Shown here piece by piece: positions 19,085 through 48,300 of a DNA stretch of 59,688 nt (the first letter of the stretch is position 1; each line of letters opens with the position of its first letter). This stretch comes from Gemmatimonadota bacterium. GTDB lineage: Bacteria > Gemmatimonadota > Gemmatimonadetes > Palauibacterales > Palauibacteraceae. The position numbers and the translations under genes are program-made. Under the pieces are notes generated by a model. The model was not told where the DNA came from and ran no database searches. It saw only the letters and a list, made by a program, of their open reading frames with translations. The stretch is taken from assembly GCA_039587445.1 (NCBI GenBank), contig JBDHIM010000004.1, forward strand, positions 1-59,688. The letters are read 5' to 3'.

Positions 19085-20893
19085 TCAGCGGCGCTGGAAC
19101 TCGGGTGATCCGAGGGCGAGGCCGAGCGCGAGCTCGTTCGGTCCGGCCCCCCGGCGCAGCTCGGCGAGGGCCCCCTCGAGGCCCGCGAAGTCGCTCCGGA
19201 TCTCCGTCTGTATCACTTCCTGCAACGCGGCGGTCTCCGCGCCGGGCAGCAGATCGGCGAGCATCCGATCCACCGACTGTCGCGACAGTGATCCGGGGAC
19301 CCGAACGTTCTGGATCCCTCCCGTCGCCATCGCGAGGCCCAGATTCATGCGCTGGAGGAGCGCCGCCCCGCTCGCCCATTCCTCGGACTCCGCCGGATAG
19401 CCGGTCGGGGGCGACGACATGTAGGGTATCTGGTCGAGGGCGCGCAGCTGCTCCGCTAGCCCGCGCGAGGGGCCGAACTCGGCGCCCGTCACCCTGAGCG
19501 CGCTGGCGACGAGCTCGAACGGGGTCTTCAGCTTCGCGCCGATGTTCTCCGGATCGTAGAAGTGCTCCGACGTGAACAGAGCCCGCGTGACCTCGCGCAG
19601 GTCGCCGCGGGTCTCGAGGAAGACCGCTGCCAGTTCATCCACGAGCGCCGGAGGCGGATCGTCCGCGACGAAGGCCCCCGCCAGCTTGGTCACGACGTGC
19701 CTGGCGGTCGACGGGTGCACGGCCAACATCCTGAGCACGTCGAGCCCGTCCTCGATTCCTCTCCCCGCAGAGAGCTCTCGTCCCAGCACCGTCTTCTCGC
19801 CCGGGTCGTGCCACTCGGGCCGGAAGACGAACTGACCGGCCGACGCGTTGCCGTCCGAAACCATCCTGCTGGCGCGATCCCTACCGCCACTGCGGCCGGG
19901 CAGCTGCATGGTCCAGCCCGTGAAGGCGCGCGCCACCTCGATCACGTCCTCCTGCGTGTATCCACCGTCGACCCCCAGCGTGTGAAGCTCCAGAAGCTCC
20001 CGGGCGTAGTTCTCGTTGAGGCCCCGCTGGCGCCCGGTTTGCCGCTTCATCGCATCCTCGATCCGGGCGATCTGTTCCTCCGGCACGCCGCGCATCCGAA
20101 GCACGACTTCGCGCTCCCGCGCCGACATGTTCTGGAAGCGGGTCCGAGCCCTCTGCTGCCGGGCCGCTCGCGGGTTCAGGGAGTCCGGCACCTGGCTCTG
20201 CCAGTTGTCCAGGTACACGAGCATCGCAGGGTGCGAGGCGGTGGCGATGAGCATGTCCTCGAACTCGCCGAACACGTTGGGCCGTATCGCCTCGCGCTCG
20301 TAGTCGCCGACGAACCAGCGATCCGGCCCTTTGGCGAAGAAGACGTTGAAGTGGTTGAACCAGAAGTCGGTCATCACCTCTTCGAGCTGGCGTTCCGAGT
20401 CCACCGCTCGCACCAGCTTGGCGCCGGCGAGGTCGAAGAGGATTCGGTTCGGGCTCTGGATGCCGAGTTCTCGCCGCATGCGGCGCATCTCGTCGCGAGA
20501 GACGGAATCCGGTTTGCCGAGGCGTGCCCGTGCGACCCGAGGAGGCGGGTAGGCCGCGTAGAGCTCCGATACCGACATCTCGGCGGCAGGGAAGGTAGTC
20601 AGCCGCTCTTCGAGCTCGGAGTCGTCGATTCGCTCCGGTGAGAGCTGCCGTTCGAGCCACGCTTCGAGACCGAGGTCCAGAGCCCCGGCCAGATCCTGCG
20701 GGCGCACGCCGTAGGTGGCCCGCCTCAGGAGATGGAGCGCTCGGGTGGTGTCACCCTCGGCCCCATCCGGGATCGGTGCCTGCGCCCTGGCGGGCGCCTC
20801 GAGAGCGGTGAGAATCATGCTGGCGGCGAACGCTCTCGCGAAGGTCCTCCGACCCCTGTGCCAGTCCCTCGAAGTGTGCGCCACGGTCCTCAT
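19085..20893 (-). CDS. DUF1800 family protein
   Basis: HLLRRATYG, EVMTDFWFNHFNV, MLVYLDN, NENYARELLELHTLG, ARAFTGW, SPEFQRR; usual partner of DUF1501. Start uncertain (20893 or 20926). Confidence 0.9.
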   Translation of the reverse strand: MRTVAHTSRDWHRGRRTFARAFAASMILTALEAPARAQAPIPDGAEGDTTRALHLLRRATYGVRPQDLAGALDLGLEAWLERQLSPERIDDSELEERLTTFPAAEMSVSELYAAYPPPRVARARLGKPDSVSRDEMRRMRRELGIQSPNRILFDLAGAKLVRAVDSERQLEEVMTDFWFNHFNVFFAKGPDRWFVGDYEREAIRPNVFGEFEDMLIATASHPAMLVYLDNWQSQVPDSLNPRAARQQRARTRFQNMSAREREVVLRMRGVPEEQIARIEDAMKRQTGRQRGLNENYARELLELHTLGVDGGYTQEDVIEVARAFTGWTMQLPGRSGGRDRASRMVSDGNASAGQFVFRPEWHDPGEKTVLGRELSAGRGIEDGLDVLRMLAVHPSTARHVVTKLAGAFVADDPPPALVDELAAVFLETRGDLREVTRALFTSEHFYDPENIGAKLKTPFELVASALRVTGAEFGPSRGLAEQLRALDQIPYMSSPPTGYPAESEEWASGAALLQRMNLGLAMATGGIQNVRVPGSLSRQSVDRMLADLLPGAETAALQEVIQTEIRSDFAGLEGALAELRRGAGPNELALGLALGSPEFQRR

Positions 20894-33913: not shown

Positions 33914-34306
33914 GTCGGACCTCTTGCGCACGTGGTATCGGGCCGGGTCTACCTGGTCGGTTCGATCCGCGCGTTGCCCCGCACGTCCAGACCCTTCGCC
34001 GGCCCTGCGTCGAGTGGATGCAATGCGAAAGTAGTGTACCGTCGCAGAAGTCACACTGGCATTCGGGGGCCGATTCATTCCGCTCGGCGGCGCTGCTCGT
34101 CCTCGACCTTGCGCTGCTGCGCCTTCGTCGTCGCGCCTTGCCGAGGCGGACAACTGGGCCCCCTCGGTGCCTACCGTACTTCTGAGACGGTACACTAGGC
34201 GGCGACTCGAAGGGCCAGCAAGGGAGAGACGTTCAGGCTCCAGCCGCTCTGGCAGGATTCCCGGTCAGGCCGCACACTGTTCCGGAGTTGAAACGAGGAG
34301 GATGAC

Positions 34307-34777
34307 GTGACCGAACCCTTCTATGTCTCCCGCGCGCAAGTGTGGAAGGTCGAGGGTGTCCATCGAAGGGCCCGGCTCGAGACCGGGACCGAGTTCGACA
34401 TGGGCGTTCACGGCCCGATCAAGGAGCACTACCGGATCGAGGCGCAGGATCAGCCGCTCCCCGTCGATTACATGGTGGCCCTCACCGGCGGGTGAATGCT
34501 GGGAACTCTCAACGGCGCGCTGGAGGCGCGCGAGGTCAGGCTCGATCCGGGGGCGATGACGGCGTCCGTCACGGGCTTCAACGAGATCGTGGACCGAACC
34601 CCGGTGCTCACCCGCATCGAGATCGAATACCGGTTACGCATCCCGGAGGGCACGCGGGATGTGGTCGACTGGGCTCTGGAGCTGCATCAGTCCAAGTGCC
34701 CGACGGTGGCGACGCTACGCGGCGCGGTCGACGTCACCTGGATGGCGGAGATCGAGGAGGAGCCTTCCCGCGCCTGA
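34307..34777 (+). CDS. OsmC/Ohr-like protein with in-frame UGA at 34493-34495 (probable selenocysteine)
   Basis: ORFs 34307-34495 and 34496-34777 are in the same frame, separated only by TGA. Joined they read ...DYMVALTGG-U-MLGTLNGAL...HQSKCPTVATL, the two-Cys layout of OsmC. RBS GAGGAGG at 34295-34301. Confidence 0.82.
34508..34534 (+). promoter_or_regulatory. Candidate bacterial SECIS hairpin
   Basis: CTC-(AACG bulge)-GCGCGC-[TGGAG loop]-GCGCGC-GAG; loop begins 25 nt after the UGA, with G at loop position 2. Confidence 0.65.
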
Positions 34778-34817
34778 ACCGGTGCGAGCCGACCGCCGTC
34801 CTCCGCAGTCCGTGCGT

Positions 34818-35702
34818 CTACTCCACGGCGGCGGGCGGCAGACGCGGCCGCTGCAGGCGCAGCCATAGGACCCCGCTCAGCAAGACGACCCCACCGGCAT
34901 ACTGCAGGATCGAGATTCTTTCCCCCAGGAGGAGAGAAGCCAGAAGGACCGTAAGCAGGGGCTCAACGGTGGCGTATACGGCCGCCTGACCTGGCCCGAT
35001 ATCCCGGATGCCGACGAGCAGCAGTGTGACCGGCACGGCCGTGGAGATCACGCCCATCAGACCTACCAGCAAGGCCGCACGAAGCCCCCCGCCGAGCGCC
35101 AGACCTCCGAAAAGGGCCGCGGCCAGCGCCGCGACGGCACCGGTAGCCAAGAGGCTAACGGCGGCCGCTCCATGGGCCGGCGCGTCCTCGAGGAGCGTCT
35201 TCCCCCAGAGGATGTAGATCGCGACGAAGGCGACGGCGATCAAGATCAGCAGGAGGCCGAGCGGGTCCGCTCGGTGCCCATCGGAGCCCACGATCAAGGC
35301 GCACCCCGAGATCGCGATCAACGTGGCCAGCACCCGCGGTCGACTCAGCCGTTCACCGAGAAAGACGGCGGCCAGCACGATCACGACGGCCGGATAGGTG
35401 AAGAACACGAGCGAGGCGAGTGAGGCGGAGACCCACTGCAGCGCGGCGAGGTAGGCCGTCGCGTTCACGGCGTAGAGGACCCCCAACACGAGCAGGGAAG
35501 GCCATCGCGTCCGAGGTGGAACCTGCCTTCGGCTAAGAGCGATGAGCAGCCAAATCGCCGCCGTCGCCACCAGGAACCGCCAGGCGACCATCGGCAATAC
35601 CCGCACTCCCTCGGCGAGGGCGAGCTTGGCCAGGATCGGGAGGGTGCTGTAGCCGACGGCGGAGCCGAACACGGCCGCCGTGCCCCGAGCCTCTTTGGTC
35701 AT
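34818..35702 (-). CDS. DMT/EamA family transporter
   Basis: About 10 TM segments in two repeats, each with an LGER motif; FTYP and EPL motifs. Confidence 0.9.
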   Translation of the reverse strand: MTKEARGTAAVFGSAVGYSTLPILAKLALAEGVRVLPMVAWRFLVATAAIWLLIALSRRQVPPRTRWPSLLVLGVLYAVNATAYLAALQWVSASLASLVFFTYPAVVIVLAAVFLGERLSRPRVLATLIAISGCALIVGSDGHRADPLGLLLILIAVAFVAIYILWGKTLLEDAPAHGAAAVSLLATGAVAALAAALFGGLALGGGLRAALLVGLMGVISTAVPVTLLLVGIRDIGPGQAAVYATVEPLLTVLLASLLLGERISILQYAGGVVLLSGVLWLRLQRPRLPPAAVE

Positions 35703-39239: not shown

Positions 39240-39818
39240 TCAAGCCAGAGTCGCGCGCAGGAGCATCCGCGCCCTGTGCAACTGCGACTTCGACGTTCCG
39301 GCGGTGATCTTCAGCATCCGCGCGATCTCGTGGTGCTTGTATCCTTCCACGTCGTGCAGGACGAACACGTGCCGGGCCCGGGCGGGCAGTCGCTCGATCG
39401 CGGTGTCGAAATCCATTCCGATCTCCGAGCTCCTCTCGTGCGACGGTCTACCCTCTCGATTCCATTCCTCGGGTGCCATGCGCTCCCGGTGTATGGCGAG
39501 GCGCCGACGATGTCCGAGAATCACGCTGATCGCCACGCGGTAGAGCCAGGAACCGAACGCGGCCTCGCCGCGGAACTGCGCGATCTTCTGCCAGGCTCGA
39601 ACGAATGCGTCCTGTGTCAGCTCGTCGGCGTCATCGGGACCCGCCATCCGTCGCGCCAGGCCGTATATCCTGGTCACGTGACGCCGGTAAAGTCGCTCGA
39701 ACGCTCCGGAATCTCCCTCTGCGGCGAGGACGGCGTCGTGGAAATCCAGATCCGTGTCCGGCACCAACGCGTGTTCGATCAGCTTCGATCTCTCTCTTGG
39801 TGTTTTCTTTTCTCGCAC
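39240..39818 (-). CDS. ECF RNA polymerase sigma factor
   Basis: AFERLYRRH, ELTQDAFVRAW, FGSWLYR, VFVLHDVEGYKHHEIA, GTSKSQLHRAR. Confidence 0.95.
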   Translation of the reverse strand: MREKKTPRERSKLIEHALVPDTDLDFHDAVLAAEGDSGAFERLYRRHVTRIYGLARRMAGPDDADELTQDAFVRAWQKIAQFRGEAAFGSWLYRVAISVILGHRRRLAIHRERMAPEEWNREGRPSHERSSEIGMDFDTAIERLPARARHVFVLHDVEGYKHHEIARMLKITAGTSKSQLHRARMLLRATLA

Positions 39819-45623: not shown

Positions 45624-47030
45624 CTAGACCTGATCTTCAGTTCGATTCGGTTCTTCGACGCCGAGACGCGCGAGGTCCGACAAGATGACCGGGAGCTTCG
45701 GTGCCGGTCGTTTCTGCACCTTCTGCAGCGATAGACGACCCGCTCGGCCGGACACCCGCGAGGATTCGGCCTCCTCCACGCGCCTGGCCCCCGGCGGATC
45801 GGCGAACCGGACGGGGCACCATCCCCGTCGTGTGGATATCAGCGAACCGCCTCTGGCGACCGCTTCCGGAAGACGAAAGTGCGAGGGCTCGGCGAAGTAC
45901 GTCTCCACGATGTCCCCGGTCGCAAAGCTCGCCGTTACCCTTGGCGCCGCAGCCTCGCCGGCGCACTCGCTCGACGTCGTCGAGGACGCCCTCGGGCTAA
46001 GGGCTGCCAGCGGCAGCACCAGCGTTCCGGCCGCGACGTAAACCGGGACGGCGACCCACCGTCCCAGTGAGCCGTGCGGCCGATCCGCGTCCAGGAGGGC
46101 GGCCACGCGCCGGACGAACTTGGGCCCGCGGGCGAACGCGACGCTCGCGCGGGCCATCGGCGCCCTTCCGCGAAGTGCGCGCGCCACCATCAGCAGGTGA
46201 GTGGCGTACTCGGACGGCGGAGAGCCGGCGCGAAGGACCTCGTCATCGCACGCACGCTCACGCTGTTGGCGGATCTCGGCGGCCGCCAGCCACACGAGCG
46301 GATTAAACCAGTAGAGCGCGCAGGCAGCGCGTACGACGTTCTGGATCAGGTAATCCTGGCGTTTCACGTGCGCCAGCTCGTGCAGCAGAACGTCACGTCT
46401 CAAGCCCGCATCCCAGGAATCCGCGGTTGCTGGGAGTAAGATGGTGGGCCTCAGCGCACCCCAGGTCATCGGGACCACTACCTCCTCGCTCTGAACCAGA
46501 CGGATGCTGCGCTGCAGATGCAGCCTGCGGCGAGCTGCGGAGGCTGCTTCGAGCCAGTCCGCGTTGGTAACCCGCCGCGCTCTGCGCGAGATGCGGTGGA
46601 GGTGAGTGCTGCCGAATCCGAAGTACAAGAGGACCGCCGCGAAGCCCACCGTCCAGCCCAACAGGAGCAGAGCCCCCGTCGCCCACAGGCCGCGCCGGAG
46701 CGCCGGGGGCGTCGCCGGCTGTGACGTGGCCTCGGACGCGTCGACCGGTTGTCCTTCCAGATAAAGACTACCGGGCAGGTCCGACACCGCCGGAAGCACC
46801 GCGATCTCCCAGCTCGGAACGACCGGCTGAAGAAGGGGCAGGGCCAGAAGGCAGCCGAAGGTCACCCCCAGGACGAGGTGTCGGGTCGAGGCGGTCGCGC
46901 CCCGCAGGGCCTTCGCGGCCAGGATCCCGCCCATCAGCAGCGCCGTTCCCTTGGCGGCCAGATCGAGCAGCGCCAGCAGCGCCGGGCCCGACAGCGCCGC
47001 CAAAGTCGCGAAGTCGGAAGCTGGGTCCAT
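45624..47030 (-). CDS. M56 family (BlaR1/MecR1-like) metallopeptidase
   Basis: TM segments, PMTWG, HELAHVKRQD, YWFNPLVW, RERACDDEV. Confidence 0.9.
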   Translation of the reverse strand: MDPASDFATLAALSGPALLALLDLAAKGTALLMGGILAAKALRGATASTRHLVLGVTFGCLLALPLLQPVVPSWEIAVLPAVSDLPGSLYLEGQPVDASEATSQPATPPALRRGLWATGALLLLGWTVGFAAVLLYFGFGSTHLHRISRRARRVTNADWLEAASAARRRLHLQRSIRLVQSEEVVVPMTWGALRPTILLPATADSWDAGLRRDVLLHELAHVKRQDYLIQNVVRAACALYWFNPLVWLAAAEIRQQRERACDDEVLRAGSPPSEYATHLLMVARALRGRAPMARASVAFARGPKFVRRVAALLDADRPHGSLGRWVAVPVYVAAGTLVLPLAALSPRASSTTSSECAGEAAAPRVTASFATGDIVETYFAEPSHFRLPEAVARGGSLISTRRGWCPVRFADPPGARRVEEAESSRVSGRAGRLSLQKVQKRPAPKLPVILSDLARLGVEEPNRTEDQV

Positions 47031-47416
47031 CAGCGGCCCTCTCGACGAGCCCTGTCGATCAGGTCGGCGAGCTCAGCGAGTTCCTCCTCGGAGAGGTGTG
47101 CGGACTCGTCGAGAAGGGTTGCCACGGCCTGAGCCGCGGAACCCTCGAAGAACGTGTCCAGAAGGCGCCGCGTGGCCGATCGGCGAGCTCGATCTCGCGG
47201 CACCGTCGGACCGTAGACGTAACGCGGCCCATCCTGCCTGTGCCTCAGGTGCCCCTTCTCCTCCAACAGCCTGAGCATCGCTCGTACGGCCGAATAGCTC
47301 GGCGGATCGGGGAGGTCACGCTGCACGTCGGCTGCGGACGCGCTCCCCTGCTGGTAGACGATGTCCATGATCTGGCGCTCGCGTCGCGTCAGATGGATGT
47401 GGGGCTGTGTCTGCAT
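47030..47416 (-). CDS. BlaI/MecI/CopY family transcriptional repressor
   Basis: LTRRERQIMDIVY, SYSAVRAMLRLLEEKG, RYVY, FFEGS; stop overlaps the M56 start. Confidence 0.93.
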   Translation of the reverse strand: MQTQPHIHLTRRERQIMDIVYQQGSASAADVQRDLPDPPSYSAVRAMLRLLEEKGHLRHRQDGPRYVYGPTVPRDRARRSATRRLLDTFFEGSAAQAVATLLDESAHLSEEELAELADLIDRARREGR

Positions 47417-47469
47417 CGAATTCTCCCGGCCGCGGGGATGGCTGGCTGTTCCCGTCGTTCCCACCAGAC

Positions 47470-47523
47470 TGTTAGTAAGCTAGCAGTCTGCTATAAAAGT
47501 AGCACTACCCCGTAGTGTGTCAA
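47470..47523 (-). promoter_or_regulatory. Sigma70 promoter overlapped by tandem palindromic operators
   Basis: Minus strand TTGACA (47523-47518)-N16-TACTTT (47501-47496) with extended TG; palindromes TGTTA-N6-TAGCA (47470-47485) and TGCTA-N6-TAGCA (47489-47504). Confidence 0.7.
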
Positions 47524-47635
47524 CGTGCCGTCTGGGCGACCGTTAAACCCGAGCTACGAATAGGACACCCGAGCTCCGCGGATGGTTGGAAGAGAAGCGG
47601 CGGCTTCGGAGCTGCTTAGGAGATTCTTCGAAGAT

Positions 47636-47675
47636 GCCAAACAGGCCCGGGACGGTCATCCCGGGCCTGTTTGGC
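47636..47675. terminator. Strong hairpin downstream of the DUF1579 gene (probable terminator)
   Basis: Perfect 17-bp stem GCCAAACAGGCCCGGGA / TCCCGGGCCTGTTTGGC with a 6-nt loop; U-tail weak. Confidence 0.65.
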
Positions 47676-47709
47676 TCTCACGTTCTCATGGCCCCCGCGG
47701 GCGCACAGC

Positions 47710-48300
47710 TTATTGTCGAATCGACACGATCTCCATCGTCTTTCGAGCCTCGTCCGCGCCCTCGGCCTTCTCGTACCAGATAAAGACCGTCTTGTCCGGC
47801 CCCTCCATCCGGCTGACCGTCTTGACTTTCGTCTTCGTGCCGGTGATCGGATCCGCGTAGCTCCCGTGCATGACGATGCCGCCCGCTTCGTCGTCCCACT
47901 GGCCGTGGCTAGTGAAGATGCCCGTGCCGAAGTTGTCGATCCAGGTCGCCTCGTACCGCTCCGACACGTTGTTGTAGCCCGTCCAGCCCAAACCGTTGAA
48001 CGGCATCCCCATGGCGGTGCCCTCGACGGAGTCGTACAGGTACCGGCCGCCCATCACCATCTTGCTGGTGCTGGTGGCCTCCGTGACGATCGGATCGGCT
48101 CCGGGCTGCATCCAGGAGGTGACCGTCATCGCCCATGTGCCCTCGAGCTCGGTGAGCTTCGCATGGTGTTCGCCGGGCGTCATCGCCTTCTCGTAGGCGG
48201 CCATTGCCGCTGCCTCGTCGTACTCCTGAGCGAGCGCGGGATAGGCCGCCGCCAGGCTCAGGCTCAGGGCGAGCCCGACTCCGAAGTTCCTAGGTCTCAT
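47710..48300 (-). CDS. DUF1579 family exported protein
   Basis: Signal peptide (ALA/QE), TPGEHHAKL, MGGRYL, MGMPFNGLG, WIDNFGTG; ATG 48300 after AGGAG. Confidence 0.85.
   Translation of the reverse strand: MRPRNFGVGLALSLSLAAAYPALAQEYDEAAAMAAYEKAMTPGEHHAKLTELEGTWAMTVTSWMQPGADPIVTEATSTSKMVMGGRYLYDSVEGTAMGMPFNGLGWTGYNNVSERYEATWIDNFGTGIFTSHGQWDDEAGGIVMHGSYADPITGTKTKVKTVSRMEGPDKTVFIWYEKAEGADEARKTMEIVSIRQ

Follow-up and report, generated by a model that had tools for sequence, protein, structure and literature searches.

A stretch of 59,688 nucleotides from a Gemmatimonadota bacterium (assembly GCA_039587445.1, contig JBDHIM010000004.1, positions 1 to 59,688 of the forward strand), referred to here as the window, was analyzed, and this report concerns one locus in it, at 34307-34777, which is a candidate gene for a selenoprotein of the OsmC type. 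Under genetic code table 11, the list of open reading frames (ORFs) contained two entries at this place, 34307-34495 (62 aa) and 34496-34777 (93 aa). The frame that runs through both of them has exactly one internal stop, the TGA at 34493-34495, and its read-through product has 156 residues, in which residue 63 would be selenocysteine (Sec, U). The features of the locus, including the core of a putative Sec insertion sequence (SECIS), are as follows.

34307-34777, + strand: whole predicted selenoprotein gene, 156 sense codons plus a TGA stop, from translation
34295-34301, + strand: Shine-Dalgarno-like motif GAGGAGG, seen in the sequence itself, 5 nt upstream of the GTG start
34493-34495, + strand: in-frame TGA, predicted Sec codon, residue 63, at the position of the first conserved (peroxidatic) Cys of OsmC/Ohr
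34515-34531, + strand: predicted SECIS core hairpin, with 5' arm 34515-34521, GGA loop 34522-34524 and 3' arm 34525-34531
34697-34699, + strand: TGC of Cys131 in SKCPT, which corresponds to the second (resolving) Cys of OsmC/Ohr
34775-34777, + strand: terminal TGA, the true stop, where homology ends

The start codon was GTG at 34307, and the N-termini of homologues align with it. The read-through product contains ...VALTGG-U-MLGT..., with ...DYMVALTGG-U-MLGTLNGALEAR as the residues around Sec63, and its second Cys lies in SKCPT at codon 131. The original prediction for this DNA had joined the two ORFs into one 156-codon OsmC-type frame and had expected standard gene callers to split it. The table 11 result was exactly such a pair of ORFs, of 62 aa and 93 aa.

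Family, fold and codon 63

To place the read-through product in a family, profile, alignment and structure comparisons were used. The product matched the Pfam family PF02566 (OsmC) with 38.4 bits (gathering score 27.5), and the match spanned profile positions 4-99 of 100 (96/100). The family profile aligned T. thermophilus OsmC (1UKK) so that its first conserved Cys, in the helix motif, fell on residue 63 and its second, in the CP motif, on Cys131. Residues 63 and 131 were invariant in a 57-sequence alignment (A5) in which TGA was read as C. The family profile hit the window gene across the TGA, over positions 1-156, with 267 bits and 1 TGA inside the match.

The AlphaFold2 model, which was built from the 57-sequence alignment, had a mean predicted local distance difference test score (pLDDT) of 97.1 and a predicted TM-score (pTM) of 0.89, and residue 63 was located within a long helix, 52-74. 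A Foldseek comparison with the PDB gave 67 matches at E <= 0.001, and all the listed descriptions were OsmC, Ohr or YhfA-type. The top matches were YhfA (1ml8), E. coli OsmC (1nye/1qwi), OhrB (6eb4), 1UKK and Ta0195 (2onf, query TM-score (TMq) 0.79), with E-values of 1e-9 to 1e-7, TMq of 0.64-0.79 and sequence identities of 10-21%. The read-through product belongs to the OsmC/Ohr thiol-peroxidase superfamily. Profile score, model and 1UKK alignment agree with the original prediction that the two ORFs form a single OsmC-type frame, with the TGA at the first catalytic Cys and the second Cys (KCP) intact. Designer pentatricopeptide repeat (PPR) proteins topped a sequence search of the PDB; they were disregarded because sub-threshold repeats had been summed there without any significant single stretch.

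Codon 63 was then compared among homologous loci from genomes and metagenomes. The species-representative genome collection (GTDB) supplied 80 loci that were kept, 59-95% identical and almost all labelled Gemmatimonadota, and codon 63 was TGA in all 80 (79 by pattern and L035 by direct translation). A further 80 loci were retrieved from metagenomes using Cys-form queries, and these had TGA in 77/80 and TGC in 3/80. Overall, at 53-95% identity, TGA was present in 158 of the 161 homologous loci and TGC in 3 (L107, L151 and L158, all from metagenomes), which are the sole Cys forms among them; TGG was found in none of the 161. The sequence was conserved in frame on both sides of the UGA (alignments A1, A2 and A5). 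In an even sample of 401 Gemmatimonadota genomes, 113 had a match to the family profile at E <= 1e-20. Among the matches listed from this sample, TGA was carried by 150/150, and 30 further matches exist. Some profile matches were marked as having two TGA codons, and a second Sec at Cys131 was considered for them; it was rejected, as the second TGA was the stop codon.

The protein databases hold the family mostly in pieces. A word-indexed protein search returned 103 homologues, most of them 89-93 aa long and starting exactly at Met64, and a few full-length ones had C, or W, at column 63. Together with exhaustive HMMER searches, 250 homologous proteins were collected, including 120 C-terminal fragments with their first residue at 64/65 and 30 N-terminal ones that stop at 60-62. 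Their database names were 'hypothetical protein', 'uncharacterized OsmC-like protein' and 'OsmC family protein'. Among the 76 homologues that span the site, residue 63 was C in 58, W in 4, S in 4, G in 3, A in 3, D in 2 and R in 2. The alignment at codon 63 of UGA (80/80 genome and 77/80 metagenome loci) or Cys (58/76 spanning proteins) was a check proposed with the original prediction, and it came out in favour of the prediction.

The window sequence was also compared with contigs from three other sequencing runs (X1, X3 and X8). They span 34493-34495 and are identical there, with neither TGC nor TGT, the codons that the prediction had named as evidence against it. These contigs showed strain-level differences at 34507, 34546-34600 and 34675-34761, and none in the TGA or in the hairpin at 34515-34531.

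The hairpin downstream of the TGA

The hairpin has the sequence GCGCGC-TGGAG-GCGCGC, which, with the U-G closing pair included, forms a 7-bp stem with a GGA loop. Its folding energy was -11.2 kcal/mol (17 nt); the stem starts 19 nt past the UGA, and the spacing from the UGA to the loop is 26 nt. The bacterial SECIS (bSECIS) model, as given in the legend of Fig. 2 in PMC13188914, has an apical loop of 3-9 nt and an upper stem of 4-16 bp. The same source puts a G at loop position 1 or 2, with G or U as the usual next base, and gives a UGA-loop distance of 16-37 nt and a minimum free energy of -7.5 kcal/mol or lower (PMC13188914). The window hairpin agrees with this model in all four respects (loop and stem size, loop G, spacing and energy). 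Read as a 5-nt loop, U-GGA-G also fits the pattern N1-G-[G/U]-N-N2.

The conservation of this hairpin was analyzed in 81 loci (74 distinct sequences), for which the TGA and the 63 nt after it were aligned without gaps. The RNAalifold consensus had one helix, columns 23-29 with 33-39, which corresponds to 34515-34521 with 34525-34531. The GGA loop, columns 30-32, was invariant in the 81 sequences, and at the seven stem pairs 100% of cells were standard pairs in the 74 distinct sequences. Pair 27-35 was A-U in 47 sequences, G-C in 23 and G-U in 4, and pair 26-36 was C-G in 73 and U-A in 1. The observed covariation score was reached by 0 of 500 shuffles. Furthermore, when the partner was shifted by 1-3 columns, pairing fell from 95% to 22-67%. 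In the G-C/A-U switch, a synonymous change of an Ala codon (GCG/GCA) on one side of the stem is matched by an Ala/Val replacement (GCG/GTG) on the other. Loci from metagenomes contributed a change from G-C to C-G at 23-39 (GGC...CGC vs GCC...CGG) and more changes from C-G to U-A at 26-36.

Synonymous sites were analyzed in 148 distinct Sec-form sequences. Three codons of the stem and loop were nearly fixed in comparison with codons for the same amino acids elsewhere in the gene, where Gly, Leu and Val use 4-6 codons. The values were as follows.

Gly codon in the stem/loop: GGC in 135/137, entropy 0.11; Gly elsewhere in the gene, 1.0-1.8
Leu codon in the stem/loop: CTG in 146/147, entropy 0.06; Leu elsewhere in the gene, 1.3-2.0
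Val codon in the stem/loop: GTG in 111/112, entropy 0.07; Val elsewhere in the gene, 1.3-1.6

The Leu codon supplies the first G of the loop. In all three Cys forms (L107, L151 and L158), this codon was CTC instead of CTG, by which the first loop G is gone, and in two of the three the stem was weakened to 5/7 pairs.

Selenocysteine machinery and alternative readings

The source assembly consists of 251 contigs and is 88.8% complete. It contains selA on contig C66 (519 bits against a cut-off of 268) and selB (339 bits against 242), both without internal stops. A tRNA-Sec was found with 61 bits against a cut-off of 47, and ARAGORN called it tRNA-SeC with anticodon TCA. The selB gene (45908-47788) and the tRNA-Sec gene (39392-39485) lie on the same (-) strand of contig C242, about 6.4 kb apart.

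For selD, a search of the genome with TIGR00476 returned only sub-threshold relatives of the AIR-synthase type. The best of them (L001, C36:1622-4465, 74 bits) is itself AIR-synthase-type and adjoins a HypD-like ORF; it was set aside as probably the HypE of a hydrogenase maturation cluster. Searches with tblastn and blastn located the first 40 codons of selD at C50:1-120 (-), at the contig end, 97.5% identical to a selD of the same genus. Since this stub runs off the end of C50, selD is present and cut by the assembly. The stub has an in-frame TGA in GAG-U-ACKLG, its known Sec/Cys site. In 20/20 relatives searched, selD scored over the cut-off and had one in-frame TGA each; judged by this conserved codon, SelD is therefore itself a Sec-containing protein in this clade. 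The Sec machinery that the original prediction had expected elsewhere in the genome was thus recovered, with selA, selB and tRNA-Sec over their cut-offs and selD as a 40-codon stub.

The genome contains a second OsmC-like paralogue at C38:19133-19606 (-), which scored 151 bits on the family profile. It has an in-frame TGA (19412-19414) at the same position, in GG-U-LTGT. Both Sec paralogues occur in many Gemmatimonadota genomes. Most orthologues of the C38 paralogue carry the hairpin GGCGCGCUGGAGGCGCGC, which is the same as that after the selD TGA, and the copies of its own genus have GGGC-GGA-GCCC, 18 nt past the UGA. The hairpin after the TGA of the selD stub is GGGUCC-GGA-GGACCU. A GGA apical triloop was therefore present in all three candidate SECIS elements of the genome, namely those of the two OsmC paralogues and selD, with spacings of 26, 17-18 and 18 nt. 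This common triloop fits a common recognition motif of SelB, and it may be a motif specific to this lineage. Four more OsmC-like genes, at C161:1931-2299, C206:6024-6407, C172:5357-5725 and C31:3930-4262, have no internal stops. On NF041052, the NCBIfam model OsmC_like_Se, these four scored 36-67 bits, above the Sec paralogues and below the cut-off of 95.

On this evidence, we regard 34307-34777 as one gene that encodes a 156-residue selenoprotein of the OsmC/Ohr superfamily, whose UGA at 34493-34495 would be read as Sec, with a probability of about 0.93. The integrity of the gene, its family and fold, the Sec/Cys pairing at codon 63, the conservation and covariation of the hairpin, and the presence of the Sec machinery are what the analysis shows directly.

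Among the alternatives, read-through of the UGA as something other than Sec was considered, either by near-cognate Trp or Cys or because TGA is reassigned (code 4 or 25). A few full-length database proteins have W (P0005, P0008, P0056 and P0134) or G (P0108, P0135 and P0225) at position 63, as this explanation would have it. In the nearest loci, TGA stands opposite these residues, which suggests that the proteins were called under code 4 or 25 on short contigs and that the Trp or Gly is not real. Homology stops at a terminal TGA in the window gene and in four orthologues, and selA and selB are free of internal stops; TGA is thus not globally reassigned. In addition, the complete Sec system in the clade, the TGA of selD at its known Sec/Cys site, the match of the conserved GGA hairpin to the SelB-dependent model and the complete lack of TGG at codon 63 in the 161 loci all oppose this explanation, and we give it only a small chance of being correct.

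A split gene is still less probable, and we consider it very unlikely. Here the two halves would be made separately by stop-start coupling at TGAATG and would form an OsmC-like fold that lacks residue 63. The ATG at 34496 directly after the TGA would suit such coupling, as would the calling of the 93-aa ORF by gene callers and the 120 database fragments of this kind. However, the Met after the TGA is a residue of the family that is present in contiguous Cys forms too (CMLGT). The next codon is CTG or CTA (Leu), an inefficient start, in loci such as L032, L033, L051, L072 and L079, and in 22/22 examined copies of the second paralogue the codon after the TGA is not ATG, mostly Leu CTG/CTA. No Shine-Dalgarno sequence was found ahead of 34496. 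A split gene would also be missing its catalytic residue, and it leaves the conserved hairpin and the frozen synonymous sites unexplained.

A nonsense mutation or assembly error in an ordinary Cys-type OsmC gene would need only one base change (TGC to TGA) and would give the same table 11 split into 62-aa and 93-aa ORFs, but its probability is negligible, and on comparative grounds a pseudogene or assembly error is excluded for the window gene because the same TGA recurs in 158/161 independently assembled loci with both halves conserved in frame, is unchanged in the contigs of three other runs, and is found at the same position in the second paralogue of the same genome.

Several points weigh against Sec decoding at this gene or narrow its support. 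We infer Sec insertion at UGA 34493-34495 from nucleotide sequence, and the putative peroxidase function, like the assignment of a peroxidatic and a resolving residue, is carried over by analogy with OsmC/Ohr proteins. The hairpin of the single sequence is not unusual, with a fold z-score of -0.64. A hairpin that passes the bSECIS constraints follows 151 of the 1316 TGA triplets in the window (11.5%), and one at least as stable as the hairpin described here follows 42 of them (3.2%). As a lone hairpin is within chance expectation in such G+C-rich DNA, it is the comparative data that carry the SECIS case. Conservation of the amino acids (GALEAR/GALEVR) accounts for some of the nucleotide conservation in these data. 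An Rfam scan of 34300-34800 at E <= 10 returned two chance snoRNA-like matches and no SECIS family. The original prediction had taken the hairpin as a SECIS element extended by CTC/GAG; its core stands on the four constraints and the covariation, whereas the extension (columns 16-18 with 40-42) does not, since it was paired in 83% of cells with almost no compensatory support. In the genome itself, selD amounts to 40 codons at a contig end in an assembly that is 88.8% complete. Finally, in 18 of the 76 database proteins that span the site, W, S, G, A, D or R stands in place of Cys, so residue 63 is not essential across all distant relatives, unless some of these are calls under other codes.

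Proposed mechanism, known relatives and significance

If the UGA is decoded as Sec, SelB carrying Sec-tRNA(Sec) would bind the 7-bp hairpin with the GGA loop at 34515-34531, inside the coding sequence. SelB would then deliver Sec to the ribosome, and UGA 34493-34495 would be decoded as selenocysteine. The second UGA, at 34775-34777, has no such hairpin and would terminate translation. In OsmC/Ohr proteins, we take the first Cys to be peroxidatic and the second to be resolving, and we carry these roles over to residues 63 and 131. Sec63 would thus replace the peroxidatic Cys on the long central helix and attack the hydroperoxide, forming a selenenic acid. Cys131 in SKCPT would resolve this acid to a selenenylsulfide, and a thiol reductant would recycle the enzyme. 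The recycling reductant of Ohr/OsmC proteins is a lipoylated protein or thioredoxin. For the window protein, this analogy suggests a peroxidase activity, a reductant and roles for individual residues.

Compared with the OsmC/Ohr enzymes, thiol-dependent reductases of organic hydroperoxides (OsmC 1nye/1qwi and 1ukk, Ohr 1n2f and OhrB 6eb4), the window protein has the same fold and the same two redox positions at 10-21% identity. The first redox residue is Cys in those enzymes, whereas it is predicted to be Sec in the window protein. The models TIGR03562 (OsmC) and TIGR03561 (Ohr) matched 26 and 3 of the 57 family members, respectively, and only weakly.

OsmC-like selenoproteins were reported in 2005 from the Sargasso Sea, where three Sec sequences of the COG1765/YhfA type with the motif UxxT are described (PMC1088965). 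In that family, according to the same report by Zhang, Fomenko and Gladyshev, the Cys homologues outnumber the Sec sequences (PMC1088965). OsmC-like selenoproteins are also tabulated in two reviews (tables in PMC9312934 and PMC13188914). The known proteins, from the Sargasso Sea and the Global Ocean Sampling (GOS) data and as modelled in NF041052, have in common with the window protein the PF02566 superfamily and a UGA-encoded Sec at the first Cys. As in the window family, the Sargasso/GOS proteins have a bacterial SECIS directly downstream whose small apical loop contains a G, and homologues with Cys exist. OsmC-like selenoproteins and this type of bacterial SECIS are therefore already known, and the window gene is not a new kind of system.

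The window family differs from the known one in its local motif, U-M-L-G-T (UxxxT) vs UxxT in the Sargasso proteins, and in its distribution. It is mostly found in Gemmatimonadota and nearly always has Sec (158 Sec forms and 3 Cys forms in the retrieved loci), unlike the Sargasso family. On NF041052, the window protein scored 24.6 bits against the cut-off of 95, and the window gene was absent from the NF041052 matches of its own genome at E <= 0.001. Among the A5 family members, 44/57 matched this model, weakly, with a best E of 1e-9. Given this score and the U-M-L-G-T motif, the window protein would work like the known OsmC-like selenoproteins, but it lies outside the modelled family. It probably belongs, to judge from these comparisons, to an OsmC subfamily separate from OsmC_like_Se. 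In the titles and opening parts of abstracts of the literature on OsmC-like or Gemmatimonadota/Gemmatimonadetes selenoproteins, no description of this family was found; supplementary lists may include it.

The hairpin was also compared with bacterial SECIS elements of the E. coli fdhF type and the bSECIS consensus of Zhang and Gladyshev. Those elements and the window hairpin are stem-loops within the coding sequence just 3' of the UGA, with a small apical loop that begins with G-G. The window element is unlike the fdhF type in that its G+C-rich stem of 7 bp is capped by a GGA triloop. We know of no likeness in primary sequence between the two elements.

By a slight balance of probability, these genes form a distinct, uncatalogued and unmodelled OsmC clade, mainly in Gemmatimonadota, in which Sec is the rule, unlike in most families of selenoproteins. 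Its genomes would often have two Sec paralogues, its SECIS would have the GGA triloop in common with that of selD, and the databases would hold only its 62-aa and 93-aa fragments. If so, Gemmatimonadota as a whole phylum would depend on selenium for peroxide defence, a trait concealed by current annotation. Reading the locus as one gene corrects a systematic annotation error, as the family is mostly present in the databases as fragments and no NCBIfam model captures it. An environmentally abundant phylum would carry one or two Sec-dependent OsmC-type enzymes and a Sec-containing SelD, which would matter for the selenium demand of soils, sediments and sponge symbionts. Furthermore, the family offers a clean natural experiment on SECIS constraints within a coding sequence, in view of the frozen synonymous sites, the covariation of an Ala/Val replacement with a synonymous change across the stem, and the missing loop G of the three Cys forms.

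A scan of 34100-34900 for promoters and terminators found none. The neighbouring genes lie on the opposite strand, with a DUF885 gene upstream and an EamA transporter gene followed by a putative cyclase gene downstream, and they gave no functional link to the selenoprotein gene. Because its flanking genes are unrelated and on the other strand, the selenoprotein gene stands alone.

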